A DNA stretch of 64,000 nt from an uncultured Bacteroidales bacterium (GCA_934700615.1 CAKUXR010000003.1:15536-79535), one strand, 5' to 3'. Shown: positions 33,531 to 53,145, numbered from the stretch's first letter. Notes: a model not told the origin generated them from the letters alone. Translations and numbers: made by a program.

Positions 33531-33546
33531 TTGTCAACCATACACA

Positions 33547-33951
33547 TCAATCCTGAAAGAACTTGTCAAGTTTACCAGATTCTAGGTCCTCCAGCATCTT
33601 GTTGGTCGTTTCTCTAAGCACAGGCAGGTCTTTCCGTATAGTATTAAAGACTGCTTCATCATCAATATCTGAATATTCATGAGACAAAACATTCCTCATA
33701 CCAAAGACCGCTTTCCAAGGCACCTGTTTATAGGGCGAGAAAAACTCTTCGGAAACCTTATTCCTTATTTTGATAAAGTTTTCGGTAATATATTGAAGGC
33801 TCATCCCACAGGCTCTGAATACCGTCATTCCTGTTATACTCTGTCCAAAGTCTTCAGGAGACTCTATCGAGACAGACATTTTTTCGATCAAGTCCATTTC
33901 ATCAATACACACACGCAGGTAGGTCCTGATTCTCTCTTTCACACTACACAT
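33547..33951 (-). CDS. hepT: HepT-like (DUF86) nucleotidyltransferase-substrate-binding toxin
   Basis: Rx4HxY motif (RNVLSHEY) near the C-terminus. Overlaps the upstream MNT gene by 8 nt. Confidence 0.8.
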   Translation of the reverse strand: MCSVKERIRTYLRVCIDEMDLIEKMSVSIESPEDFGQSITGMTVFRACGMSLQYITENFIKIRNKVSEEFFSPYKQVPWKAVFGMRNVLSHEYSDIDDEAVFNTIRKDLPVLRETTNKMLEDLESGKLDKFFQD

Positions 33952-34447
33952 ATATCAAATCTTTTTCAATATTCGCCCTAAATTCATATCGACTTTTAGC
34001 TTTCTCTGACACCAAATCCACTCTACGTTTCAGGACAGACTCCAGAAGGATATTTATCTCTGATAAAACAAACAACGATGGATTCTTAACTGAAATAAGG
34101 ATATCAACATCACTATCACTTCCCTGTTTTCCTCTTGCACAACTCCCGAACAATGCCATACTCTCTATCCCGTACTTTGCGCCCTGACTTCTCTTAAAGG
34201 CCCTGAGAATCCCCAAAATACGCTCCTTTTCAGAACACTCACTTGCATATTTATCCACAATCGTGAACTTCAATTCATAGCCGAGCGCTTCCAGCAAACG
34301 CAAGATAGTCTCTTCACTACCTAAAGTTCCCTTCTCCATTTTAGAAATCTGAGACTTGGACATTCCGGCCAAGACGCCAAGTTGCTCTTGCGTAAGGTTT
34401 CTGGACTTACGCAAAGACTTTAGCATATTAGATGTAATCGTTTTCAT
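33944..34447 (-). CDS. mntA: MNT-type minimal nucleotidyltransferase antitoxin with an N-terminal XRE-type HTH
   Basis: N-terminal HTH (LTQEQLGVLAGMSKSQISKME), then a GSxxRG ... DxD nucleotidyltransferase motif (FGSCARGKQGSDSDVDI). Confidence 0.8.
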   Translation of the reverse strand: MKTITSNMLKSLRKSRNLTQEQLGVLAGMSKSQISKMEKGTLGSEETILRLLEALGYELKFTIVDKYASECSEKERILGILRAFKRSQGAKYGIESMALFGSCARGKQGSDSDVDILISVKNPSLFVLSEINILLESVLKRRVDLVSEKAKSRYEFRANIEKDLIYV

Positions 34448-34548
34448 TTCAGTCCAAATATATCAAATATTTCATATTTATGCAACTTCAAGTTTAAAAT
34501 CGCGCCAACACATGAGTTAAATGTTGGACTCAGAAGAATATTTTTTGG

Positions 34549-40617: not shown

Positions 40618-43002
40618 TTATAGGCCCAAAAGACGGAAGAGTCCAGATGCTCCAAGCCGCTGCTTCGTCTTCTTGGATTTCTTGTCATCCTGCACCTGAT
40701 CCGATGCCCCCGACTTGGCATCCGTTTCGGACTGAACCTTCCGGGAAGGAGTATATTCAGAAGGAATCTCAATGTTGTAAGGCGCTTTGCTGAGTTTCAA
40801 GTCATAGAAGACATACTGCCCCGAGCGCTTGTCCCCGCACTCAAGCCAGAACATAAGCTGATGGCACTTGAAGATCGGGACAGTAACCGTAAGAGGCTGC
40901 ATCTTGTTGTCCAGCCAGAACTCCCCTACAAGTACCTGATCAGCAAACACATTGAGCTTTACAGGATTCTTCACCGCCTCTTCACTCCTGTTCTGGAATA
41001 CATCATCGAACTCATCCATGTGCTCCATCTTGTTGGCAACAGTGAAAGTACAGCTCTCATATTCTCCATAGGGATTGAACGCCGCAGCCGAAGCCTGTTT
41101 GTTGTTCTTGTCCTCCAGAAGCAGGAAGATGCCCGCCGTAGGAGTTCCGCCTGAGACTCCGCCGCTGACGCCTGTATATGCCGCTACGTCAGAGCCGCTG
41201 ATAGTCGCGCCGACTCCTGTCAATGCCATGAATACGGCATCCATGACCGTCACATTCTCCAGTCCTAGAGGAATGTTTGTCTCCAGCATGAAACCCTTGT
41301 TGATCTGTCTTCCGTCCTTCATCTGGAAATATTTCGTGATAGTGCTTCCGTCGTGGAAACATTCGTCCATGCTGAATTCGGTCAAATCACTTACATACCT
41401 TCCGACAAAATGGAAATAAGGCTTGCCGCAAAGGTCTATCAGGTCTGTCTCAAACGGGCAGTCCGGCACGTCATGCTCGAACACATTGTTAGGAACAGGC
41501 TTGCCACGATAGAGAATAATGTCACCCACACCTATGATAGTCTGCTTGTTCTTTCCGTTGCCCATCTTCTCGAACCTGAGCGTACGGCACTTTGAAACAG
41601 GGATTTCGTAATGCTGGTTAGGCCATGTGCAATATATGGTCTTGTCGAAGACAAGCTGCCCGTCGGCATAGATGCGGAGATTGTCATCATCCAATACGTG
41701 ATTCTTGCTGAGACATCCAGCATCGAAACTTATCCAGTCATACTCCCCTGCCAGGTCAAACTCCGCATAAGAATCCACCCTGTCCCCCAGCATCGTATTG
41801 CCTGTCGTCAGGAGCAAGCCTTCCCAATAGCGTTCCCCACCCATCGAGAATGTATAATGACGGGATTCTCCCTCGAACAGAGTATTATTTGCAGCACTGA
41901 CACCACGAACCGAATAAGGTTTGATAGAGGACATAAGCGGGCAGATATCCGGCAGTTTAGAAATCCTGTCCCTATTGGAATTGACAAGTCCCTCCGCCGG
42001 AACAGATGAATCGCCTTGCGGGTGAGCCGTGATATCCACTACGCCGTATGTTATGCCTCCGAGGAAATCACTGTTACGGTACTCACAGGTAAATGCCAAC
42101 TGCGTAGCTCCGTTCACATCGACCACCACTTGTTTAGCGAGGTCTCTCTGGGTTATCATCCCTTCATATACTGTCTTCTTGTCCGCCTTTACGATAAGCC
42201 AGGCACTGGAGTTGGTACTCTGATTATCTCTCGGGCCCACAACGAATGAAACCTTGTCATACCTCTTGTCAAGCCAGAAGCAGGCGGTTCCCTGTTCCTT
42301 TCCCGAAAGAGCCTGAGATACAGAGAACTGGATTCCGGAATCATAATCCTTACGGGTAATGCTTATCGTCTTCACCTCGGACATGCTTGACTTGAACCGG
42401 TCTCCCACGACAGGCTTCACTCCACCATTTCCCTTCATGTAATAAAGTTGATTGGTCTTCATCATATCCACAGTCCCCTTCGGCAAACCAGAAAGCAATG
42501 TATTGGGATTGGATGGGGTAACGCCCGCCTTCCACAACTTGATATTTCCGAAAGAGATGTCCAGACTGCCACGTGGCACGGTAAACGTCAATTCATTGAC
42601 ACCGGCAACATCGAAAGTATAGAATCTCGGCGCGTCATATCCGTAAACGACCTCATCCATAAGTCTCTTCCCGTCTCCGGAAACAGTCACGATAGAGTTC
42701 CCGGGATCGGACGAGCCTACAGAGAAAGGCCCCACGATCAGCGTCATCTTGCTATAGGCTCCCTTAAGGTTGAACACAGCCTTTCCCGGGACATTGTCGG
42801 CAATCAATCCGCCCGAAGGGGACCCCAATGTAAATCCCCCCTTGACATTGTATCCGCTAATGGAAACTGATCGTTCGTTCGACTTATATACATTGCATTT
42901 CGACTTGCTTGTCGGAGCGAGAACATTGACCATTACAGTCTGTGCATTCACGTGCGACAAGCCGATGAGCATCAATGCGACAAAGGAAAGTATCTTCTTC
43001 AT
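40618..43002 (-). CDS. Secreted multi-repeat protein with NPCBM/NEW2-like (discoidin-type) carbohydrate-binding repeats
   Basis: Signal peptide; about four repeated ~170-aa modules each ending in a G-x-I-x-L/Y-K motif (ISFGNIKLWK, GDIILYRG, YVFYDLKLSK); Lys-rich C-terminal tail. Confidence 0.6.
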   Translation of the reverse strand: MKKILSFVALMLIGLSHVNAQTVMVNVLAPTSKSKCNVYKSNERSVSISGYNVKGGFTLGSPSGGLIADNVPGKAVFNLKGAYSKMTLIVGPFSVGSSDPGNSIVTVSGDGKRLMDEVVYGYDAPRFYTFDVAGVNELTFTVPRGSLDISFGNIKLWKAGVTPSNPNTLLSGLPKGTVDMMKTNQLYYMKGNGGVKPVVGDRFKSSMSEVKTISITRKDYDSGIQFSVSQALSGKEQGTACFWLDKRYDKVSFVVGPRDNQSTNSSAWLIVKADKKTVYEGMITQRDLAKQVVVDVNGATQLAFTCEYRNSDFLGGITYGVVDITAHPQGDSSVPAEGLVNSNRDRISKLPDICPLMSSIKPYSVRGVSAANNTLFEGESRHYTFSMGGERYWEGLLLTTGNTMLGDRVDSYAEFDLAGEYDWISFDAGCLSKNHVLDDDNLRIYADGQLVFDKTIYCTWPNQHYEIPVSKCRTLRFEKMGNGKNKQTIIGVGDIILYRGKPVPNNVFEHDVPDCPFETDLIDLCGKPYFHFVGRYVSDLTEFSMDECFHDGSTITKYFQMKDGRQINKGFMLETNIPLGLENVTVMDAVFMALTGVGATISGSDVAAYTGVSGGVSGGTPTAGIFLLLEDKNNKQASAAAFNPYGEYESCTFTVANKMEHMDEFDDVFQNRSEEAVKNPVKLNVFADQVLVGEFWLDNKMQPLTVTVPIFKCHQLMFWLECGDKRSGQYVFYDLKLSKAPYNIEIPSEYTPSRKVQSETDAKSGASDQVQDDKKSKKTKQRLGASGLFRLLGL

Positions 43003-43073: not shown

Positions 43074-43191
43074 CCATATTCCGAAAGGTAGTGAATAATC
43101 GAGATATCTGCAAGTTCAGCCACTATTGCATCTTGCTAATCGATGATTATGATGTTTTCCTATAAGACGTTATCGCACACAAGGTTGTAAC
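43074..43191. repeat. Direct repeat A (about 118 bp, about 90% identical to repeat B). Contains a duplicated copy of the last 14 codons of the ABC-2 permease (VTTLCAITSYRKTS*) and a degenerate remnant of the N-terminus of the 236-aa gene.
   Basis: 42-bp and 35-bp perfectly identical blocks with 51943-52059. Translation of the minus strand reproduces the permease C-terminus. Confidence 0.75.
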
Positions 43192-43320
43192 CCGGCAGTT
43201 TGACAAATATATTTTCAACGATTTTAACTTGCTTTTACGAAAAAATGCCTTGTATTTGAGAGAACAACACTCTTTTGGCAACTTTAAGTGGATATATTAT
43301 TTATTCCCGGTTAAAAGCAG

Positions 43321-43328
43321 TAACTTTG
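43321..43328 (+). promoter_or_regulatory. -7 promoter element TAACTTTG upstream of the HTH gene
   Basis: TAnnTTTG match 27 nt upstream of the ATG at 43355. Confidence 0.35.
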
Positions 43329-43354
43329 CGGCAAACACAACAAATAATTGAAGT

Positions 43355-43561
43355 ATGGCGGATTTAAATCGTGTCAAGACCGTATTGGCAGAAAGAGGTA
43401 TTATGAGTAAATGGTTGGCAAAGACATTGCATAAGGACCCTGCCACAGTATCGAAGTGGTGCAACAACCACGCACAACCTGACTTGAAGACACTGGCACA
43501 AATAGCCGATGTTCTCAATGTGGATATACACGAGTTGATTTGCCATACCAAAGTGGAATGA
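43355..43561 (+). CDS. XRE-family helix-turn-helix transcriptional regulator (68 aa)
   Basis: HTH_3-like sequence (MSKWLAKTLHKDPATVSKWCNNHAQPDLKTLAQIADVLNVDIHELI). Confidence 0.8.
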   Translation: MADLNRVKTVLAERGIMSKWLAKTLHKDPATVSKWCNNHAQPDLKTLAQIADVLNVDIHELICHTKVE

Positions 43562-43568
43562 ACAGAAT

Positions 43569-44987
43569 ATGAGATATACTATCGAAGAGATACGTCAGAT
43601 GCCCGAAGGGCAGACTTTCGACTGCAAGAGCATTCATATAGAACCGAAGGCTCTCGCCAACACTATTGTCGCTATGGCAAATGCCGATGGCGGCATGATA
43701 GCCGTAGGTATATCCGACAAGACTCGTCGTATCGAGGGTGTCAACCAAGACAAGGCTCATTTGAATGAGATACTTCGCACTCCGTTTGACTTCTGTGTAC
43801 CCACCATTTCTGTTACGACAGAGTTCATGCCTTGCCAAGACAGCGAGGGCAATGACAACCACATACTGATAATCCATGTCCCGGCCAGTCCTCGCCTCCA
43901 TGCCAACCAAGCCGATGAGGTGTTTTGGCGGGTGGGCGACAAGTCGCGTAAGCTACCCTTTGAGGAACGTCTGCAACTGATGTATGACAAGGGTGAACGA
44001 TACTATGAGGACAGCCCTGCCTACGATGCCACTATCGAGGATATCGACATAGATGCCGTAAAAGCATATATGAAGCGCATTGGTTATGGCAAGTCTCCAA
44101 TGGAATACCTGCAAGAGAACAAAGGATTCCTGACTTACAAGGGCAATGTACCACAAATCAGCACTGCCTGCATCTTGCTCTTCGGTAAGCATCCCCAGAA
44201 CTTCTTCCCTCGTGCCCGTGTCCGTTTTATCAAGTACTATGGTACGGAAGAGAAAGTCGGCAGGGAAATGAACGTCATCAAGGATGTCACCTTCGAGGGG
44301 CGCATCCTCGACCAGATACAGAAAACCATCGACTACCTCGAAACGCAAGTGAAGGAACATTCCTATCTCGGTGAGGACGGACTCTTCAAGACCGACAGGG
44401 AATATCCTAAGTTCGTGATACAAGAGATGACGGTAAACTCGGTTTGCCACCGCGATTATAGCATCAAAGGAACGGAGATACAGATAAAGATGTTTGATGA
44501 CCGACTTGTGTTCGAGACCCCCGGTAAGCTGCCAGGTATCGTCCGCACCGACAATATCCGCCACACCCATTTTTCCCGTAATCCCAAGATAGCCGAGTAC
44601 CTGAAAGCCTACGACTATGTAAAGGAGTTCGGTGAAGGAGTTGACCGTATGTGTCGTGAGCTTTCTGCCATTGGCACGAAGGAACCCCAATATCATTTGG
44701 TCGCCTTTATAATGAAAGCTTCTGTGTGGGCTAATTTATTGGAGGAAGGGCAAGAAAAGACCATATCCGACCAGAAGCGACCAGAAAGCGACCAGATAAG
44801 CGACCAGATAAAAATGATTTTAGAACTAATCAAGGAAAAACCACAAATAAGTAGAAGCGAAATTTCACACAGAATGGGACTTCATGAAAGTAGTGTAAAG
44901 CGTCGTCTGAAGATGATGGCTGATAAAGGTATTATTCAACGCATAGGTTCCGACAAAGGTGGTTATTGGCAAATCAGCAATAACTAA
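43569..44987 (+). CDS. AlbA_2 (Schlafen-like divergent AAA) plus HATPase_c_4 plus C-terminal winged-HTH ATP-binding protein
   Basis: An N-terminal E-x-K-S/E ... VAMANADGGMIAVGI AlbA_2 core, a central HATPase_c_4-like region (NSVCHRDYS) and a C-terminal HTH (ISRSEISHRMGLHESSVKRRLKMMADKGII). A short tandem repeat of agcgaccaga units sits in the linker (44742-44790). Confidence 0.85.
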   Translation: MRYTIEEIRQMPEGQTFDCKSIHIEPKALANTIVAMANADGGMIAVGISDKTRRIEGVNQDKAHLNEILRTPFDFCVPTISVTTEFMPCQDSEGNDNHILIIHVPASPRLHANQADEVFWRVGDKSRKLPFEERLQLMYDKGERYYEDSPAYDATIEDIDIDAVKAYMKRIGYGKSPMEYLQENKGFLTYKGNVPQISTACILLFGKHPQNFFPRARVRFIKYYGTEEKVGREMNVIKDVTFEGRILDQIQKTIDYLETQVKEHSYLGEDGLFKTDREYPKFVIQEMTVNSVCHRDYSIKGTEIQIKMFDDRLVFETPGKLPGIVRTDNIRHTHFSRNPKIAEYLKAYDYVKEFGEGVDRMCRELSAIGTKEPQYHLVAFIMKASVWANLLEEGQEKTISDQKRPESDQISDQIKMILELIKEKPQISRSEISHRMGLHESSVKRRLKMMADKGIIQRIGSDKGGYWQISNN

Positions 44988-44996
44988 ATTAAAAAA

Positions 44997-46529
44997 ATGA
45001 ATTCACAATTAAACAAATCAGATTATACAAAGCACTCCAATTCAAATTGGATAGAAAAACGCAAAAATGATATAGGGCTCACCGATCTTTTTTTGATGGA
45101 TTCATCGAATAATGAGATTGGAGAGATTATGTCATTATTCAATACTCATGGATTTGTAGTAATAAAAGGAGATAAGGGTTATGGATTGATAGACAAACAA
45201 TTGAAAGTAATCCTTGATTGCTCGTACATTTTTAAATATAACAGATGTGGTCCTGACTTTGCATACCATTATTTAGTTGTACAGAAAAATGGGTGTTATG
45301 GTCTGGTAAATGAAATTGGGAAAATTGTTGTACCATGCCAATATCCAGGCTTTGCATCTTTTAGTAATGCCGATAATAATAATTTATTAGACAGGGGATT
45401 TTTATGTATTACAGACGGTAATAAGTATGGTTTGATTGAAATAGCCAATTCAAATCAATATCTACTTAATTGTGTTTACGATAGGATAGTATTTCATTCA
45501 AACAAACAATATATCTGGCAGGATTTCTTGTGTGCAGCCGATAATAGGTATATTGTTGGTTATTCTGCAAAATCATGTACTGTGTTTGATGTTCTATCAC
45601 ATCAGTTTTTTACCATAAATGAGCAGGTATATAACATTGAAGTTATTTTCAACAATCATGTTGTTGCTATTTCAAAGTTTTCTAAAACAGATGATACTTT
45701 GAGATATAATATTCTTTCAATAGAAAATGGTATTACAATGAACGAAAAAGAATATGACGGACTAGCAACTTTAGATGGGGAATATATACAAGTACGCCAG
45801 GGTGAGAACTGGGGCATTTTTGATTTGTCTGAAAATAAAGAGATTATTCCATGCCAATATTTTCACGGTGAGAAGCAAAGTTACTTTTCCGTTCACTTTT
45901 GTCCAGGTTTCATGGTAAAGCCCAATGAGGAATTGATATTGGTTTTAATTGATGGCTTGTGGGGTTATATTAACAAAAGCAATAACTTAGTTATTGACTG
46001 TATTTATGAAAAAGCAAGACCTTTTTCCGAGGGCATGGCGGCCGTTTATCAACATTTTTATTGGAGATTTATAAACTCAGAAGGTGAATTTGTAGGAGGA
46101 AAATATATGGAAGTGTTGGATTTTAATGAAGGAATGGCAGGTGTAAAAGAATTCGATAAATGGGGATATATTAACAAGTATGGAATTCAGATTATCCCTT
46201 TCCGTTTTTCTGAAGCAGAATCCTTTTCAGAGGGATTGGCACCGGTGGCTTTTAAAAATAAGTGGGGATACATAAATGAAATGAATGAAACAGTCATACC
46301 TTTCCGATATCAATGGGCATATCCATTTAATGATGGAATTGCAAGTGTTAATGATTATGGAGGAAATGGGCATATTGATAAAAATGGGAAATGGATTGAT
46401 TATGAAGAATATAAACAAGATAATAATATTTATCATAATTATGAAGCAGAACGTTGGGATGCACTAACAGATGGAATGGAAGGCGATTACCCTGGTTCTG
46501 GTGTTGACTACGATTTATTAGGATTTTAA
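44997..46529 (+). CDS. WG-repeat-containing protein (510 aa, no signal peptide)
   Basis: Multiple WG-repeat units (KWGYINKYG, KWGYINEMNE, LWGYINKSNN, NGCYGLVNEIGK ..). Very AT-rich. Confidence 0.8.
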   Translation: MNSQLNKSDYTKHSNSNWIEKRKNDIGLTDLFLMDSSNNEIGEIMSLFNTHGFVVIKGDKGYGLIDKQLKVILDCSYIFKYNRCGPDFAYHYLVVQKNGCYGLVNEIGKIVVPCQYPGFASFSNADNNNLLDRGFLCITDGNKYGLIEIANSNQYLLNCVYDRIVFHSNKQYIWQDFLCAADNRYIVGYSAKSCTVFDVLSHQFFTINEQVYNIEVIFNNHVVAISKFSKTDDTLRYNILSIENGITMNEKEYDGLATLDGEYIQVRQGENWGIFDLSENKEIIPCQYFHGEKQSYFSVHFCPGFMVKPNEELILVLIDGLWGYINKSNNLVIDCIYEKARPFSEGMAAVYQHFYWRFINSEGEFVGGKYMEVLDFNEGMAGVKEFDKWGYINKYGIQIIPFRFSEAESFSEGLAPVAFKNKWGYINEMNETVIPFRYQWAYPFNDGIASVNDYGGNGHIDKNGKWIDYEEYKQDNNIYHNYEAERWDALTDGMEGDYPGSGVDYDLLGF

Positions 46530-46541
46530 TAACGGAAACAA

Positions 46542-46760
46542 ATGTTTGCAAAAGGATATACAAATATTAGGGCGATGATAGAAACCCAATATGGGATTTT
46601 ATCACATATGATAACGGATATAGCTTACAGATACCAAACGCTATTAAAACTGACAGAGGAAGAAGCTGAGCGATTGGCGCAAAATAATTCCGATGGAGAT
46701 CATGATGTCTATCATACTATTTTGAATAGTTTTAATGATGTTGAGGAAAGGTCGTTGTGA
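46542..46760 (+). CDS. Hypothetical small protein (72 aa)
   Basis: An ORF 12 nt after the WG-repeat gene; no domain recognised. Could be spurious. Confidence 0.25.
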   Translation: MFAKGYTNIRAMIETQYGILSHMITDIAYRYQTLLKLTEEEAERLAQNNSDGDHDVYHTILNSFNDVEERSL

Positions 46761-47133
46761 TTGATGACGGAAAGCAGAAAGATCCTGTTTTGCGCGATTT
46801 TTTCTTACTATGAGACAATGCTCAACGAATTTGTCCTGTATTATAAAATTGCAAATAATGCCACCCATCCATCACAAATACTTGATTCAATTCTTGTAAT
46901 GTGATAGGAAGGCACATTTCATTCTGATACACCCGGTACATTTGAAAGTGATATGGACGGTACATTTAAAGTGCCGACATCAATTAAAACGCCATAACAA
47001 AATAATGATTAATTATCTGGTAATTTTGTAAGCCTCCGGTGACGCCCGTATTGAACAAATCGAACTTTTAGCACATTATAGATGGCTCTACTCGCACTTG
47101 ACTGTTTATTCTGCATAGTTGTATAAACAAATG

Positions 47134-48330
47134 TCACCATTTACCTGAATACCCGAAGTTTGCGTAGTGCTTAACTTCTGCTCTAATTTGACTGTTAATG
47201 TCTTTTTCTTCGATGTCCAAATTATTTTCAATGAACTTCAACAACTCATCATCTGTATGCACGGTTCCAAGTGCTTCCAATAGTTTGTGATGACCGCATC
47301 TTTTCTGTATGAGATTAACTATTACCAAACCAATTAGATAATTTTTCTGCGTCATGTTCCCGGAATCAAACCTATCCAATATTCTAAGGTCTATTTCAGG
47401 ATGAGCATCCAAATAATAGTCTAGGTCTCGAAAATGGGTCTGTATCGGAATTCCGATTATCTTCGGATTCTCGGAATAATATTCAGATAAACCATCTGTG
47501 AGCAAGTGATGTGTCCCCCTGTATTTTACTAACACGAACCGCATCATCTCATGCGGATAGAATTCTCCCTGCGTGGCATTTGAGTAAATAATGTAATTGT
47601 CAATATCTGTCGTACCTCCCAAATCATTGGTGTCAAATACTGCAGTCTCACCAAAATCATAACCAAAGCCTTTCAACCTCTGCGACTCTCGGAACCCATC
47701 TGAAATATACACATCCAGATGAGGCAGCTTAATGCCAAAATTATCGAGTAAAAAAGAGCGAAATTTAAGGGCTTTATTTATCTTGCCTCTGTTTGGCTTA
47801 TATGTCTGGTAATGAAAAGTGATGTCACCTTTTGTTACACTTTTCCAGTTCTTTGAATAATAATCTAGCCAGTTGCCAAGAACGAAATTGTTATTCTCGT
47901 CCTTAAAGGAAAGTACATGTGTAGTGCACAGCACATAAGGATACTCCGAGAAATGCCCCCAATAATACATTGAATGTATATCATAATAATCGTCATTCAA
48001 AGGCTTGATAGATAACACCAGGTTCTTTAGTTCACCATATTTCGCCAATCCATATAATTCCAGATACCCTTCAGAACGGAGCAAATCATAACTTTTATAC
48101 TTCTCTTTATCTCTACAATTCCAATATGGATTATTATATAAACTGTCCGGAGAACTCATAAGATAATCGGTCCACAGCTGATTGATTTTGACAATATCTG
48201 GATTCTTCTGATTCTCCGTCTCCACCAATGAATTAGAAATAATCTGTTGTGCATGTAGATTCACGCACAACACTAAAGAAGGTATAATACAACAATATAT
48301 ATGCTTCATAACAATAAACGTTTTAGACAA
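47134..48330 (-). CDS. Secreted hypothetical protein (398 aa)
   Basis: N-terminal signal peptide; no recognised catalytic motif (HEMMR rather than HExxH). Confidence 0.65.
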   Translation of the reverse strand: MSKTFIVMKHIYCCIIPSLVLCVNLHAQQIISNSLVETENQKNPDIVKINQLWTDYLMSSPDSLYNNPYWNCRDKEKYKSYDLLRSEGYLELYGLAKYGELKNLVLSIKPLNDDYYDIHSMYYWGHFSEYPYVLCTTHVLSFKDENNNFVLGNWLDYYSKNWKSVTKGDITFHYQTYKPNRGKINKALKFRSFLLDNFGIKLPHLDVYISDGFRESQRLKGFGYDFGETAVFDTNDLGGTTDIDNYIIYSNATQGEFYPHEMMRFVLVKYRGTHHLLTDGLSEYYSENPKIIGIPIQTHFRDLDYYLDAHPEIDLRILDRFDSGNMTQKNYLIGLVIVNLIQKRCGHHKLLEALGTVHTDDELLKFIENNLDIEEKDINSQIRAEVKHYANFGYSGKW

Positions 48331-48507
48331 TTAGAGTTTATAGTCTGAAAATAAAATACTTGGCCCATTCTCCCAATTAGACAAACGATAATATGTATCT
48401 TCATCAACTTGTAAAAGAGCATTTGATAAAGAATTATACAGGAAATAATCTTTTCCATTGTATACAGTAAAAGGTATAATTTGAGACAAGCATAAAAGTA
48501 ATCTATG

Positions 48508-49965
48508 TTATTGGATCTTAAAAATCATGTCATAATTATCCTTCATCCGATAATGAGTTTTACTAACAAATGAAGAATATGGAAAACGGACACCAAATTC
48601 ATTTTCAGATATTAACATGTCTGAGTTAAGCTTTATTACAAATGTGGTATCATTTTCCCAATGACATGATGGAAACTCAGCAGGAATCATTGGATAATCA
48701 GGAAGTTTAAGCATTCCAGAAATGCCCATCATCATGCTTTCTGAAAATATAACCTTAATCATCTTAGTCTTAGATGAAATTTCCTTAAAGGATGGCTGTA
48801 TGTCTATAATGAACGGTTTTTTACTTAAATATTCCGCCTGAATCGTTTCCCAGCGACTAGGAAGAGACTTGGCAAATTGTATTATTTTCGAAAGACTCTC
48901 TGACACACTGTTTTCGTGGCAATTAAGGATAGTTTCATCAATTGCTCTGCCAAACCAAATAAATCCGCGCTCTTCATTTTCTGCGATATATTCATCTATA
49001 TTATTTTTATCTTCATCTGTAGCAATAAAATAACGTATAGAGAAGATTTCGTTAATCCACTCTCCAGCAACACTACGAGCGCTACTATACCCTAAAGAAT
49101 ACATATCACTTTTTATAACAGAAAATATTGTATCCATTTCTGACGAAAAATGACGAAACGTTTTTTCTATCAATGGCGATACGAAGAAATGAGATATCTC
49201 GTGAACTATAGTATATATTTGATTATTAGATATTGACGGAACGCTATTGTTCTCATACTCAACCCCTATTACAATAGCAAGGTGTTTGTTCCATTGCTTT
49301 TGATTGTTTATACCTGGTATTGAATAATTATTATTCCCTGTACTTAATCCAAGATATAGATCAACGGGGAAAACACGACGTTGATAGTACTGTTCAAGAA
49401 CCGGAACGTTGATTTTAGATATTGTCTTTGCACTTTCCTCAACTATTTTCTCATAGAATTGAAAATGAGATATAAAAAAGAGATGAAAATTGCTTTTTTT
49501 ATAAAAATCATCAAGCAATCCTACATATTCACGAAATATATCTTCTGTCCAACACTGTTCATATTCTTCGCTAAATGTTTTTTTAAGGTTCCACGCGTTA
49601 TCGTAAACAATGTTACCATTGACAATTTTTACCATTAAGGCAGATTTTGCGGCAATACTGTAGGCGAAATTATATTTCTCTCTGATATCTTTTATGAATG
49701 ATATAATTGGATGATCCTTGTTGTTATATACGAAGTTATCCACTTCTGATATGTAATCAAAAAGTTGATAATTAATATATTCCTGAGCTCCAGCTAATCT
49801 GAAAACTGTACAAACTAATTCTATCCTTTCATCAATAATGAGTTGAATATTATTATCTAAGCATAGACTCACCTGATCGTTTCGTGGAGAAAGTGGGTCT
49901 GCGTGCGCAAACAAACCAGATAGGACAACAAAAAAGATAAAAGAATATATCTTCCTCATAAACAC
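48508..49965 (-). CDS. Secreted hypothetical protein with an HExxH motif (putative zinc metallopeptidase; my recollection is that it is DUF4932-like)
   Basis: Signal peptide; TIVHEISHFFV contains HExxH. Confidence 0.65.
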   Translation of the reverse strand: MFMRKIYSFIFFVVLSGLFAHADPLSPRNDQVSLCLDNNIQLIIDERIELVCTVFRLAGAQEYINYQLFDYISEVDNFVYNNKDHPIISFIKDIREKYNFAYSIAAKSALMVKIVNGNIVYDNAWNLKKTFSEEYEQCWTEDIFREYVGLLDDFYKKSNFHLFFISHFQFYEKIVEESAKTISKINVPVLEQYYQRRVFPVDLYLGLSTGNNNYSIPGINNQKQWNKHLAIVIGVEYENNSVPSISNNQIYTIVHEISHFFVSPLIEKTFRHFSSEMDTIFSVIKSDMYSLGYSSARSVAGEWINEIFSIRYFIATDEDKNNIDEYIAENEERGFIWFGRAIDETILNCHENSVSESLSKIIQFAKSLPSRWETIQAEYLSKKPFIIDIQPSFKEISSKTKMIKVIFSESMMMGISGMLKLPDYPMIPAEFPSCHWENDTTFVIKLNSDMLISENEFGVRFPYSSFVSKTHYRMKDNYDMIFKIQ

Positions 49966-49999
49966 AATAATTCGTTAATTTAGACATCATATTATTTGA

Positions 50000-51238
50000 T
50001 TAAAACAGTTGGTTCAACCAAGCTGCAATATCTTCAAGGACAATCGGGCTGATGGTCTGCTCACTGTTGATATATTCAGTCGGCAAGCCAGTTGTACACT
50101 CTTGAAACAAGTGATTCAGTCCGGGATAGATTTTCACTTGTGATTTCTTGTTTTTCGGCAAATTGCCTTTGATGGCTTCCACATTTGACGAAGCAATTAC
50201 TTGCAAATCCTTTTCTCCATTCATAACCAAGACCGGGCAGGTGGTTTTGCTTATGTCGGAAGCCGGATCGTAGTCAAGGAAGAACTCGTACCATGGGGAC
50301 ATTGTGCCTATGAGGTATTCCCTTAACTGTTCTTTTGTTAATTGGTATTCCTGACCAGATTGTTTTGCGATGGCCACACCTTGCTGGTACAGGCATTCAT
50401 CTCCTTGAACGCCTACTCCGGCCATGGTGATTGCGAAGTCTATCAGTTTGTCGGCACCGAGCATGAAGGCAACATTTCCTCCTTCGCTATGCCCAAGAAC
50501 CCCGATTTTTGAGAATTTCTTTGTATCACGAAGATATTTCACGGCAAGTGCGGCATCTTTGGCAACTTCCTTTGTGGTTTCAGTCTGGAATCTCCCTGTT
50601 GATTTGCCTACACAACGATCATCATATCTAAGGGTTGCATATCCGTTCCTTGCAAGGTAATCCGCTATGATAAGGAATGGTTTGTGTTCGTATATTTCGC
50701 TGTCTCTGTTTTGTGGTCCACTGCCTGTAACCATTACGACAACAGGTACCTTTTTGCCTTGTATGTAACCTACGGGATAGGTGATAGTTCCGGAGAGAGT
50801 TGCGTTTGCTTCGTCATTGACAAATTCAATTTCTTCGGTAGTGTATGGGTACGGAGGTAGCGGGTTTTGCGGGCGGTTATATACTATTTTTTCGTTTTTT
50901 AGGTCCAGGTCTAATTCTAATCCTAATTGTGAGTAAACGCCGCAAATCATATCTCCGTTAAATTTTCCGTTGTATTCTATGCCTAAGTTCGAGATACGGA
51001 TGCTTATGGAATCGGATGATTCGAATACTATCTGAGCGGGAATACCTTTGACGCTCTGGTCAGGGCTGTCCATTGTGCAGACGGTATTTCCTTCAGCATC
51101 CTGAGAGATGTTGAATACTATATGGAGACTGCTTCCTCCGGCAGAGATTATACCGGTCCATGAGCCGGTGAAATTTTGGGCAAATGCGGTAATGGAAAGC
51201 AGTAGTGCAAAGAGCACTGATAGGGCTTTATTTTTCAT
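50000..51238 (-). CDS. Secreted alpha/beta hydrolase (S9/dienelactone-hydrolase-like) with an N-terminal lipocalin-like beta domain
   Basis: Signal peptide; nucleophile elbow GHSEGG; downstream Asp/His positions consistent with a catalytic triad. Confidence 0.8.
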   Translation of the reverse strand: MKNKALSVLFALLLSITAFAQNFTGSWTGIISAGGSSLHIVFNISQDAEGNTVCTMDSPDQSVKGIPAQIVFESSDSISIRISNLGIEYNGKFNGDMICGVYSQLGLELDLDLKNEKIVYNRPQNPLPPYPYTTEEIEFVNDEANATLSGTITYPVGYIQGKKVPVVVMVTGSGPQNRDSEIYEHKPFLIIADYLARNGYATLRYDDRCVGKSTGRFQTETTKEVAKDAALAVKYLRDTKKFSKIGVLGHSEGGNVAFMLGADKLIDFAITMAGVGVQGDECLYQQGVAIAKQSGQEYQLTKEQLREYLIGTMSPWYEFFLDYDPASDISKTTCPVLVMNGEKDLQVIASSNVEAIKGNLPKNKKSQVKIYPGLNHLFQECTTGLPTEYINSEQTISPIVLEDIAAWLNQLF

Positions 51239-51280
51239 ATTATAGCGGATTTGAGGTTTACTTGTTTATGTCAGACGGTT

Positions 51281-51991
51281 TCATATACGGTCAAAACGCT
51301 TTCCGCACTGTTTACATTTGCAGTTCTTGCTTTTTCGACTTGCTATAATGCCACTCACTACAAATAATACAATCATCACCATTGACAGCCAGTCCATTAC
51401 GACAGATTTGATATTATACTCCGCAGATGCAAGCAAATAGCCGAAGCCTGCTAAGAAAAAAAGTATTGACAGTATATACAGATGGGTGACATATTTGCCA
51501 CGCCCGATATGTTCTATGTCTTCACTGCCACACTTGGGGCAGAAAGGTTTTGCGCTTTCGGCTGTGGAATTGATAATCGGTTCAATCAGAGAGTATGCTT
51601 TTTCATAATCCTTTTCGAACACATAAATCGCGATGCCGGGCATTGGACCGTATGTTCCCGTACGTGTGTCCGTTGTTTCATCATGACGGCGAAAGACAAT
51701 ATCATCATTTTCGAGAATGCTAACGACATTGTGCACTGTAGTAATATTTGTGCACTTACATAATAATTTTTCATTCATGACCACAAAATTTTTAGTGTTA
51801 TTTCTCTTCAAGTTTGGGCTGTTTCCAAACATGGAAAATAATCGTTCTACCATTGCAGCATTGCACAGGCCAGCATATTGCTTTGCGTCACGTAAGCAAT
51901 TATGAGAAGCTATACATAATTGCGTCAAAGTGTCAAAGATAGCATATTCCGAAAGGTAGTGAATAATCGAGATATCTGCAAGTTCGGCCAC
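51281..51991 (-). CDS. Hypothetical protein with a soluble N-terminal domain and a split zinc ribbon (CPKCG ... CKQCG) flanking two TM helices
   Basis: 236-aa ORF. Its first 16 codons lie inside direct repeat B, and a degenerate copy of them lies in repeat A. Confidence 0.6.
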   Translation of the reverse strand: MAELADISIIHYLSEYAIFDTLTQLCIASHNCLRDAKQYAGLCNAAMVERLFSMFGNSPNLKRNNTKNFVVMNEKLLCKCTNITTVHNVVSILENDDIVFRRHDETTDTRTGTYGPMPGIAIYVFEKDYEKAYSLIEPIINSTAESAKPFCPKCGSEDIEHIGRGKYVTHLYILSILFFLAGFGYLLASAEYNIKSVVMDWLSMVMIVLFVVSGIIASRKSKNCKCKQCGKRFDRI

Positions 51992-52059
51992 AATTGCAGC
52001 TTGCTTGCAGATGATTATGAAGTTTTCCTATAAGACGTTATCGCACACAAGGTTGTGAC
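51943..52059. repeat. Direct repeat B (partner of 43074-43191). Overlaps the true 3' end of the ABC-2 permease gene and the 5' end of the 236-aa gene.
   Basis: See repeat A. Confidence 0.75.
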
Positions 52060-53145
52060 CGAACCGATACCCGTCAGGCAGGCCAGGTCAAACCACGTGT
52101 CCGGCAGTCCGCCACCCTTGAGGTAAATGGAGCGCATGGCATCTGCATAGTACCTGAGCGGATTGGCATAAGTAATCATCTCCGCCCACTTCGGCATTGA
52201 CTCTATCGGCGTGAAAATACCGCTCATCAGCATGAAGACCATACTGAAAAACCAGATCACGAACATCGCCTGCTGGGTATTGTCGCTGAAATTCGATATG
52301 AGAAGCCCGAACGAAGCCATCACGACAATATGGGCCAATGTGAACAGCGAAATCAGCAGGACGCTCCCCTGACAGCTGTAGCCATACGAGAGCCGCGTCA
52401 GAAAGAGACACGTGAACAGAATCGTATATGCAACAACTACATAAGGAACCATCTTGCAGATGATGAAAGTGCTCTTGCGGACCGGAGTAACATTGATCTG
52501 TTCGATTGTACCCTTTTCCTTCTCCCCGACGATATTCAGCGACGGCAGGAATCCGCACATCATGGTTATCGAAATCACTATCAATGCCGGGAGCATGAAC
52601 AGTTTGTAGTCCAGATACGGATTGAACAGGTATGTGACATCGATGTCCGGTGCAGAAACCTGAGCCCCGGACGCCCCCGGACCGGTTGCAAGACCGCCGT
52701 TCTTCACCAGAAACGATGATATGCAGCCTGTCAGATACTTGGAACCGATGTTGCCTCTGGTTCCGTTCACGGTATTGACGGAAATACCTACCGGAAGCGG
52801 GTCCGACGGCTGAGCACCCCCTCCCATATACTTCGCAAAGCCGGAATTGATCGTAAGGATAGCGTCAATGTCACCGTTATCCATCATTGACCTTGCCATC
52901 TCCGGAGTCCGGCAAACATCCTCCAGGATGAAATATCCCGAATTGACGCATTTCTCGACCAAAAGGGAAGACTCGCTGCTGCGGTCATTGTCAATGACAG
53001 CAAGCTTTATGTTCCTCAATTCCATCGACGCCGCGAACGGGAAAACAAACACAATCAGAATCGGGAACATCATCACCATACGTGGCATTCCCGGGTCCCT
53101 GAGGAACTGGCGGAATTCTTTTTTCAATAAATATTTGAAAGTCAT
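52015..53145 (-). CDS. ABC-2 family transporter permease
   Basis: A large N-terminal periplasmic loop after TM1, then five TM helices: the ABC-2 membrane topology. Confidence 0.9.
   Translation of the reverse strand: MTFKYLLKKEFRQFLRDPGMPRMVMMFPILIVFVFPFAASMELRNIKLAVIDNDRSSESSLLVEKCVNSGYFILEDVCRTPEMARSMMDNGDIDAILTINSGFAKYMGGGAQPSDPLPVGISVNTVNGTRGNIGSKYLTGCISSFLVKNGGLATGPGASGAQVSAPDIDVTYLFNPYLDYKLFMLPALIVISITMMCGFLPSLNIVGEKEKGTIEQINVTPVRKSTFIICKMVPYVVVAYTILFTCLFLTRLSYGYSCQGSVLLISLFTLAHIVVMASFGLLISNFSDNTQQAMFVIWFFSMVFMLMSGIFTPIESMPKWAEMITYANPLRYYADAMRSIYLKGGGLPDTWFDLACLTGIGSVTTLCAITSYRKTS

Follow-up and report, generated by a model that had tools for sequence, protein, structure and literature searches.

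Phage 21 and e14 integrate in the icd gene of Escherichia coli and carry a replacement for its 3′ end. Cis-mobilizable elements (CIMEs) can also lie at a gene end, an example being the 3′ end of fda in Streptococcus thermophilus. CIMEs are decayed integrative and conjugative elements (ICEs) or integrative and mobilizable elements (IMEs) still retaining the attachment sites attL and attR but having lost their genes for integration and transfer (PMC5704250). Integrase-free hotspots of horizontal gene transfer lie between conserved core genes, and they owe their diversity to double homologous recombination in these flanks (Oliveira et al. 2017, PMC5635113). Here, we compare these systems with a locus in a window of 64,000 nt from an uncultured Bacteroidales bacterium (GCA_934700615.1 CAKUXR010000003.1:15536-79535); all coordinates are those of this whole window. 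At this locus, accessory genes bounded by 118-nt direct repeats separate P, which encodes a 376-aa ABC-2 permease, from N, which encodes a 794-aa NPCBM-domain protein. Repeats, empty sites, a mosaic structure, and the distribution of alleles across strains are all shown here for the locus. On balance, they favor a strain-variable accessory-gene islet in an integrase-free hotspot, probably begun by one founding duplicative (Campbell-type) insertion and then spread, remodeled, and lost through homologous recombination.

The islet is bounded by a single family of long direct repeats. A repeat search over 41-54 kb, followed by alignment, places the two 118-nt copies at 43075-43192 (copy A or R2, on the N side) and 51943-52060 (copy B or R1, on the P side), both on the minus strand and 8868 nt apart. 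The copies are identical at 109 of 118 positions (92.4%), with perfect blocks of 43 nt and 35 nt, and eight of the nine mismatches fall between these blocks. The 43-mer occurs exactly twice in the window and was never found in 100 shuffles. The imperfect 118-bp direct repeats described in an earlier note on this DNA are thus real, and the length and the 35-bp core given there stand, but the coordinates were off by one and the longer core is 43 rather than 42 nt. ARAGORN and Rfam (E≤1) detected no tRNA, tmRNA, or known RNA at the site, and no intrinsic terminator was found in the repeat region around copy A.

Each copy of the repeat contains the end of the permease gene. In gene orientation, copy B comprises the last 46 nt of P including its true stop codon (52015-52017), a 27-nt hypervariable spacer, and a 43-nt block (51943-51985, minus strand), and its left flank is continuous with that of empty-site genomes. 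The site is bordered on the left by P itself (52015-53145, minus strand; Pfam ABC2_membrane_3, E=1e-42). Copy A lies 72 nt upstream of N and consists of a P-end fossil covering its final 14 codons and stop, together with the spacer and the 43-nt block (43075-43117). Its minus strand encodes VTTLCAITSYRKTS followed by a stop, which is the P C terminus, and the two nucleotide differences in this part are both synonymous. N (40618-43002, minus strand; Pfam NPCBM, E=2e-17), whose product has a putative signal-peptide-like N terminus, forms the right border. Two further claims of the earlier note, that copy B overlaps the genuine permease stop and that copy A re-encodes 14 C-terminal permease codons, are borne out by this comparison. 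The same note also had the repeat overlap the start of a 236-aa gene, with 16 decayed codons of that gene in copy A, and this does not hold. The 236-aa gene is an extension of an open reading frame (ORF): callers on more than 20 metagenome contigs give 165 aa with the ATG at 51778, the Porphyromonas homologue is also 165 aa, and DNA homology to other genera starts at 51805. Because the gene starts at 51778, the supposed decayed codons are a non-coding 43-nt intergenic block.

Related strains carry the empty site. Handles beginning with L denote related genomes and metagenome contigs. When species-representative genomes were scanned with the permease protein, the host fell among Candidatus Cryptobacteroides-like Bacteroidales, with L014 (Bacteroides sp. 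CAG:770; 93% permease aa identity) as its nearest match. In L014, P is followed by a 147-nt gap and then by N, with no island genes between them, and in a three-way alignment its single repeat continues leftward like copy B and rightward like copy A. L014 and the metagenome contigs L045, L046, L048, and L050 have empty sites in which a single repeat is exactly continuous with the flank on either side. When 31 nt of the repeat core were used to scan metagenome contigs for exact matches, 13 loci were returned, all 13 at this one locus and the four empty-site contigs among them; together with the presence of only two copies in the window, this rules out a dispersed repeat. The segment is genuinely polymorphic for insertion/deletion, with the repeats as its limits. 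An empty site of this form, with N abutting P and a single repeat, had been predicted by the earlier note, and the two outcomes that it named as refuting its reading are both false, since empty sites exist and the repeat is confined to one locus.

An insertion/deletion polymorphism could also be produced by deletion only. The islet would then be ancestral and predate the lineage split, and the empty sites would be repeat-to-repeat deletions, with no recent horizontal movement. Deletion between 118-bp direct repeats is expected and leaves exactly one copy. Moreover, the adjacency of P and N is missing in more distant species, in which no 794-aa gene stands beside the permease, so these species cannot root the polarity of the change. 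The empty site of L014, at least, is secondary. Its repeat resembles an N-side allele (closest to that of L047) on a P2-type permease body (haplotypes below), with the switch within a 20-nt interval that contains the left boundary of the repeat. It could stem from recombination with a filled donor, with homology starting exactly at the edge, or from a precise deletion there. The alleles of the repeats and flanks nevertheless make a purely ancestral islet quite unlikely, as set out in the following paragraphs.

All filled variants share the same two junctions. On the P side the junction is ...GAAAATA(A/T)ATTTGTCAAACTGCCG joined to GGTTACAACC..., given also as ...AAATTTGTCAAACTGCCG joined to GGTTACAACC, and on the N side it is ...GGAATATG joined to C(T/C)ATCTTTGACACTTTGA..., given also as ...GGAATATG joined to CTATCTTTGACAC. 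Alignment of the filled variants further defines a stub at each end of the island. In the left stub (51806-51942, minus strand), the first ~18 nt (CTATCTTTGACACTTTGA) are common to all filled variants and the remainder is variable, measuring 135 nt in the window and 480-665 nt in other strains. In the right stub (43193-43242), the 24 nt adjoining the repeat (GAAAATATATTTGTCAAACTGCCG, gene orientation) are common to short, long, and alternative-cargo variants. The identity of the junctions in all filled variants fits a single founding event.

The N-side repeats preserve the type of permease in which the duplication arose. P occurs as two haplotypes, P1 and P2, that are ~13% apart and have distinct 3′ ends, type 1 (ACAACCTTGTGTGCGATAACGTC) versus type 2 (ACTACTCTTTGTGCTATAAAATC); the difference between these ends does not exceed P1-P2 divergence elsewhere in the gene. 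All 12 of the 12 distinct N-side alleles carry a P1-type fossil, even those of L047 and L070, where the resident permease and its own P-side repeat are P2-type. A type 1 fossil in P2 genomes means that the duplication arose in a P1-type chromosome and that the fossil was not re-created in P2 genomes, and it speaks against deletion as the only process. The P-side copy co-varies with the permease allele while the fossil is constant, so it is the P-side copy that looks native. An element-borne copy that restores the gene, in the style of phage 21 at icd, was judged less likely for the same reason.

Flanks and island are found in mixed combinations. N also has a second haplotype, N2, which is ~91-93% identical to that of the window. 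P1 with the long island is found in the window and L057, and P1 with an empty site and N2 in L045 and L046. P2 with an empty site and N1 is found in L014 and L048, P2 with the short island and N1 in L047, and P2 with the short island and N2 in L070. Judged qualitatively, homologous recombination is elevated in the flanking core genes: all four combinations of P1/P2 with empty/filled are seen, and so are all four combinations of N1/N2 with empty/filled. L014 and the window are 87% identical to the left of the site and 96-97.5% identical to the right, and identity changes exactly at the site. Across backgrounds in which P is ~13% and N 4-9% divergent, the island core remains 96.7-98% identical. 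An island core that is only 2-3% divergent must therefore have moved between lineages more recently than the flank haplotypes split, which an islet older than the lineages and subject only to deletion does not explain. A cargo GC content of 32-42%, against 46-47% in the flanks, also marks import, and pieces of this cargo stand by themselves at other loci and in other genera.

The spacer alleles show no fixed crossover point. The allele CGATTAG is on the N-side copy in the window, on the P-side copy in L057, and never in an empty site. Its presence on either copy implies exchanges on both sides of the spacer and thus no single fixed position of crossover. The N-side copy of L044 is 98% identical to the P-side copy of the window. 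We rejected the 8% divergence between the repeats as a measure of age, because the differences sit in the spacer, whose polymorphic alleles have been shuffled among all the copies. A resemblance to attL/attR had previously been read from a repeat identity of ~90%; the imperfection is instead the hypervariable 27-nt spacer, whose alleles are shuffled between copies and strains.

No recombinase accompanies the islet. A Pfam search of island ORFs of at least 60 aa revealed no integrase, transposase, or relaxase in the island of the window, and none was detected anywhere in the 64-kb window, as the earlier note had also concluded for the cargo. The variants examined (the short, long, and alternative-cargo forms, and L006, L043, L044, L047, L056, and L070) all have neither an integrase nor a relaxase between their repeats. 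This bears directly on the possibility of a CIME-like element, in which an ICE or IME whose attP bore the permease 3′ end integrated here and lost its integrase and transfer genes, with attL and attR kept and excision and integration provided in trans by the recombinase of a related element encoded elsewhere in the genome. Such elements are documented (PMC5704250), and several features of the locus would suit one. Repeats around a segment free of mobility genes would be compatible with it if the repeats were att sites of some recombinase. The repeats include a gene 3′ end whose fossil and live copies differ only synonymously, precise empty sites exist, and junctions and end stubs are the same in all variants. 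The switch point of L014 is at the repeat boundary, the 43-nt block is nearly invariant while its neighbors vary, and breakpoints cluster around this block. The spacer alleles swapped between L057 and the window could even mirror a cycle of excision and re-integration.

The surroundings of the site in relatives give no sign of a parent element. No integrase-bearing element was found at this site in ~75 related loci. We also surveyed the DNA downstream of permease orthologues at 28 loci, leaving out 4 without downstream DNA; Phage_integrase is not among the Pfam families shared by at least 2 of the 106 downstream ORFs in the 24 related genomes. On this basis, the permease 3′ end was rejected as a common integrase target in the relatives. 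The sole integrase seen is in L070, at a different site ~7 kb away. A circle or tandem junction (...TTTGTCAAACTGCCG-118 nt-CTATCTTTGACAC...) was absent from the 13 metagenome loci, 23 contigs with the 165-aa protein, and 23 contigs with the HTH protein, although assemblies would rarely catch a rare excised form. The ~75 related loci taken together likewise yielded no circular junction and no repeat copy outside this locus. No three-copy tandem accretion of the repeat and no attP-like junction were seen. The core sequence is limited to this locus and to a single species group, crossovers have no fixed position, and the cargo consists of ordinary accessory cassettes with separate histories. A decayed integrative element at this locus is therefore possible but doubtful. 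The earlier proposal of mobilization in trans or a decayed element is not needed and is weakly supported: nothing points to a dedicated recombinase acting in trans, no circular junction was seen, and there is no cognate integrase at this site in any related locus and no fixed crossover.

A transposon is a still less credible source of the repeats. The heptamer TTTGACA lies 5-6 nt inside both island ends in inverted orientation, as might be expected of a transposon-like element with terminal inverted repeats, a 118-bp target-site duplication, and a transposase encoded elsewhere. In the short-island version the inverted match reaches ~15 of 18 positions, which is weak evidence for terminal inverted repeats in L047 (score reached in 45 of 2000 shuffles), but the match in the window is no better than chance (314 of 2000 shuffles), and terminal inverted repeats were rejected there as not significant. 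Neither the island nor the window contains a transposase, and the island ends are absent from other loci. We know of no DDE transposon family that makes target duplications of more than 100 bp. We consider a transposon origin very improbable.

At least four cassettes, each with its own distribution, are nested in the islet, and two of them occur alone elsewhere. It had been described as one element of ~8.9 kb, a description that the strain variants do not uphold. The segment between the repeats measures ~8.75 kb and has a GC content of 38.0%, versus 46-47% in the flanks. The cargo had also been called AT-rich, and its GC content is indeed below that of the flanks, but it is strongly AT-rich (GC 31-37%) only over 45-50 kb. 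The list of cargo proteins given by the earlier note was confirmed by Pfam, and no recombinase is among them.

Four parts can be told apart between the stubs. The first, next to the left stub, is a two-gene cassette (49979-51805, minus strand) made up of the 165-aa gene, which encodes a DUF2007/Zn-ribbon membrane protein (51281-51778), and the gene for a 412-aa alpha/beta-hydrolase with a putative signal-peptide-like N terminus (50000-51238). The second is a DUF4932 segment (48449-49978, minus strand, GC 32%) containing a gene for a 485-aa protein (48508-49965; Pfam DUF4932, E=4e-43), and this segment is the right end of the short island. The third (46896-48448, minus strand) contains the ORF of a 398-aa protein (47134-48330) with a putative signal-peptide-like N terminus and no family assigned. 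The fourth is the HTH/AlbA_2/WG module (43243-46895, plus strand), which encodes an XRE-type HTH protein of 68 aa (43355-43561), an AlbA_2/HATPase_c_4/wHTH protein of 472 aa (43569-44987), a WG-repeat protein of 510 aa (44997-46529), and a truncated ORF of 72 aa (46542-46760). As for a known defense system, PADLOC gave domain-level matches only and no complete system: one pAgo model is matched in its N-terminal region by the AlbA_2/Schlafen part, and the hits of the HTH are to generic HTH models.

The short form of the island shows that the long form contains a nested insertion. The short form (3.9 kb) has only 48449-51807 of the window, with the 165-aa, hydrolase, and DUF4932 genes, and continues directly into R2 and N. 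It is present at six loci (L047, L049 with L042, L052, L053, L054, and L070), and its junction joins 48449 to 43216. L051 has the P-side part of the short form on a contig that stops before the right junction. Given that the short form joins 48449 to 43216, the 5.2 kb at 43217-48448 represent a second, nested insertion. They carry the HTH, AlbA_2, WG-repeat, and 398-aa genes, which are missing from short-island strains. In L070, the DUF4932 gene is split into ORFs of 171 aa and 198 aa.

Two of the cassettes are also found alone in other chromosomal contexts. The module at 43243-46895 (3.65 kb) has a 96.6% identical copy in L061 (9888-13535), in an unrelated context after FeoB, Ffh, MnmA, AsnC, and LytTR-regulator genes, with a GC content of 39% versus 52.6% in the flank. 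Since the 72-aa ORF extends to at least 183 aa in L061, its copy in the window is a truncated one. In the collection, 360 blocks index the exact HTH protein, versus 47 for P and 31 for N. The pair of 165-aa and hydrolase genes stands by itself in three further contexts on chromosomes, those of Porphyromonas crevioricanis L068 (75% nt identity) and of two other Bacteroidales, L065 (80%) and L071 (88%). The housekeeping neighborhoods of the pair differ among these three, and its GC content is below that of its surroundings. Many metagenome contigs end at ~46.6 or ~48.2 kb in window coordinates, as expected where assemblies run into modules with multiple contexts. The plasmid and phage collections yielded no megablast match to the island.

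Other strains show further remodeling of the same interval. The cargo is an alternative one in several of them: the WG gene of L044, L056, and L060 is a different one, and in L006 the AlbA_2 gene is truncated and precedes a different hydrolase. A TonB-receptor operon (L043:3260-9960, L042:1-2735) with a 909-aa receptor, a 137-aa ORF, DUF6850, and DUF4876/BACON is cleanly inserted in L042 and L043 in the hypervariable spacer of R1, immediately upstream of the 43-nt block. Most of the ABC operon is also gone from L043, which carries an insertion sequence (DDE_Tnp_1, 599 aa) after the island left stub, the single variant with such a sequence in the interval. In L070 (8480-8600), R1 is without exactly the 43-nt block; the junction joins GCAATAAT to CCTGTCTTTGACAC and lies between AATAAT/AATATA microhomologies.

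From these patterns, we infer how the islet was founded and what part homologous recombination played. The islet would fill the 147-bp spacer between P, at the end of an ABC-exporter operon, and N in gut Cryptobacteroides-like Bacteroidales. The 118-bp repeats would be the duplicated insertion site, with the last 46 nt of P, the 27-nt spacer, and the 43-nt block, and the duplication would have arisen once, in a chromosome with a P1-type permease allele. Most simply, a circular DNA with its own copy of the 118-bp segment would have entered by a Campbell-type single crossover; another kind of duplicative insertion would have the same outcome. Because the P-side copy keeps P intact and the N-side copy keeps the whole upstream region of N, the insertion would harm neither neighbor. 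Host homologous recombination in the repeats and flanking genes would then have passed the islet between diverged P and N haplotypes. Nested insertions would have enlarged it (by 5.2 kb), its parts would have been swapped, and it would have been deleted in some strains, all with no recombinase of its own.

Several observations weigh against this reconstruction. To reach P2 backgrounds, the left crossover must fall within the ~70 nt of the spacer and 43-nt block, which is tight for RecA-type recombination. A site-specific cut would equally explain why the switch in L014 falls in a 20-nt interval at the left boundary of the repeat. The stubs of ~20-25 nt at both island ends are constant while the interior varies. 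Several independent breakpoints cluster in or beside the repeat, as in the TonB-receptor insertion of L042/L043, the exact block loss of L070, and the nested insertion 24 nt from copy A. Finally, the founding event is reconstructed, and no donor circle is known.

The 43-nt block resembles a promoter. It is nearly invariant among empty-site, P-side, N-side, and TonB-receptor-adjacent copies, and the adjoining 27-nt spacer is hypervariable. The exceptions are a C/T variant at the first base and 1-5 changes in each of seven copies, which represent six variant forms. Within the block is CTTG-N20-TACCTTTC, which is close to the Bacteroides promoter consensus TTTG-N19-21-TAnnTTTG. A relaxed motif, TTG-N19-21-TAnnTTT, occurs 15 times in 128 kb (both strands), and two of these occurrences are the blocks, one pointing to N and the other into the island. 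Judging from the motif, the block is the putative promoter of N, and the co-oriented genes of the island (165-aa, hydrolase, DUF4932, and 398-aa) probably lie behind a second copy of it. A third match to the relaxed motif, at 43185-43214 on the plus strand, spans the boundary of copy A and the right stub and points to the HTH gene. The junction of copy A with the right stub may thus form a promoter for the nested module.

A more specialized role of the block can be imagined by analogy. It might be a dedicated recombination site as well as a promoter, at which promoterless cassettes are docked, exchanged, and removed by an unlinked recombinase of the host or of an element, loosely like the attI site and Pc promoter of integrons. 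Such docking would explain why the island junction is at the 3′ edge of the block and that of the TonB-receptor operon at its 5′ edge. It would also explain the block loss in L070, the switch point of L014, and the constant end stubs. We nonetheless think it improbable that the block has this function. An integron-like cassette array was rejected as a description of the islet, which has no integrase and no repeated element between cassettes beyond the two 118-nt copies.

The regions on either side of the islet are also variable. P is annotated as the last gene of a TetR-OEP-HlyD-ABC-ABC-permease-permease operon. Two haplotypes of this ABC-exporter operon (~51.9-59.0 kb) are 82-87% identical, and the DNA just outside it is 93-97% identical (L051, L043, L014, and L048); from these identities, the operon looks like an imported allele. 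A second variable spot is found ~8.5 kb from the island, where a MNT/HepT-type toxin-antitoxin pair (33534-34540; genes ~33547-34426, minus strand; HTH_3/NTP_transf_2, 160 aa, and HepT-like, 134 aa) is a ~1-kb indel polymorphism and L049 and L059 jump from 34541 to 33533. The tyrosine integrase of L070 (Arm-DNA-bind_5, Phage_int_SAM_5, and Phage_integrase) begins just past the point equivalent to 34541. The segment 30759-32162, with an ECF sigma factor, DUF6249, and a 126-aa ORF, is missing in L049, whose matches jump from 32163 to 30758.

In a gut Bacteroidales lineage that is uncultured, the locus offers a well-resolved natural example of the building of an integrase-free hotspot. Stages of one locus (empty, short, long, alternative cargo, and secondary scar) can be read side by side in metagenomes. 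A long direct repeat over a gene 3′ end is insufficient to call an att site, and allele patterns across strains can distinguish a founding duplication followed by homologous recombination from ongoing site-specific mobility. The HTH/AlbA_2/WG-repeat module and the 165-aa/hydrolase pair are roaming cassettes that may merit functional study.

Among known systems, phage 21 and e14 share with this locus a duplicated gene 3′ end with mostly synonymous differences and an intact target gene. In those elements, however, the element-borne copy restores the gene and an integrase is encoded beside the att site, whereas there is no integrase here. CIMEs are similar in that a cargo with no recombinase is flanked by repeats that take in the 3′ end of a target gene and relatives have a single-copy empty site. 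Unlike CIMEs, the islet has no cognate ICE, IME, or integrase that was found at its site in any related genome, no tandem accretion, and no sign of a fixed crossover; its 118-bp repeat has an internal hypervariable spacer, and its cargo is a patchwork of unrelated cassettes. The hotspots described by Oliveira et al. resemble it in having one interval between the same conserved genes with varying cargo (empty, 3.9-kb, 8.75-kb, and alternative forms). They also resemble it in lacking an integrase or other recognizable mobile element (apart from the one insertion sequence in L043) and in having flanks with mosaic haplotypes and a sharp step in divergence at the site. They differ from it in the 118-bp duplication of the insertion site, gene 3′ end included, that is found here. 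Recombination in the flanks neither requires nor predicts this duplication, so an extra founding event, Campbell-type or site-specific, is needed. The islet thus looks like an integrase-free gene-exchange hotspot of a known kind, to which a duplicated insertion site has been added and which leaves current concepts unchanged.

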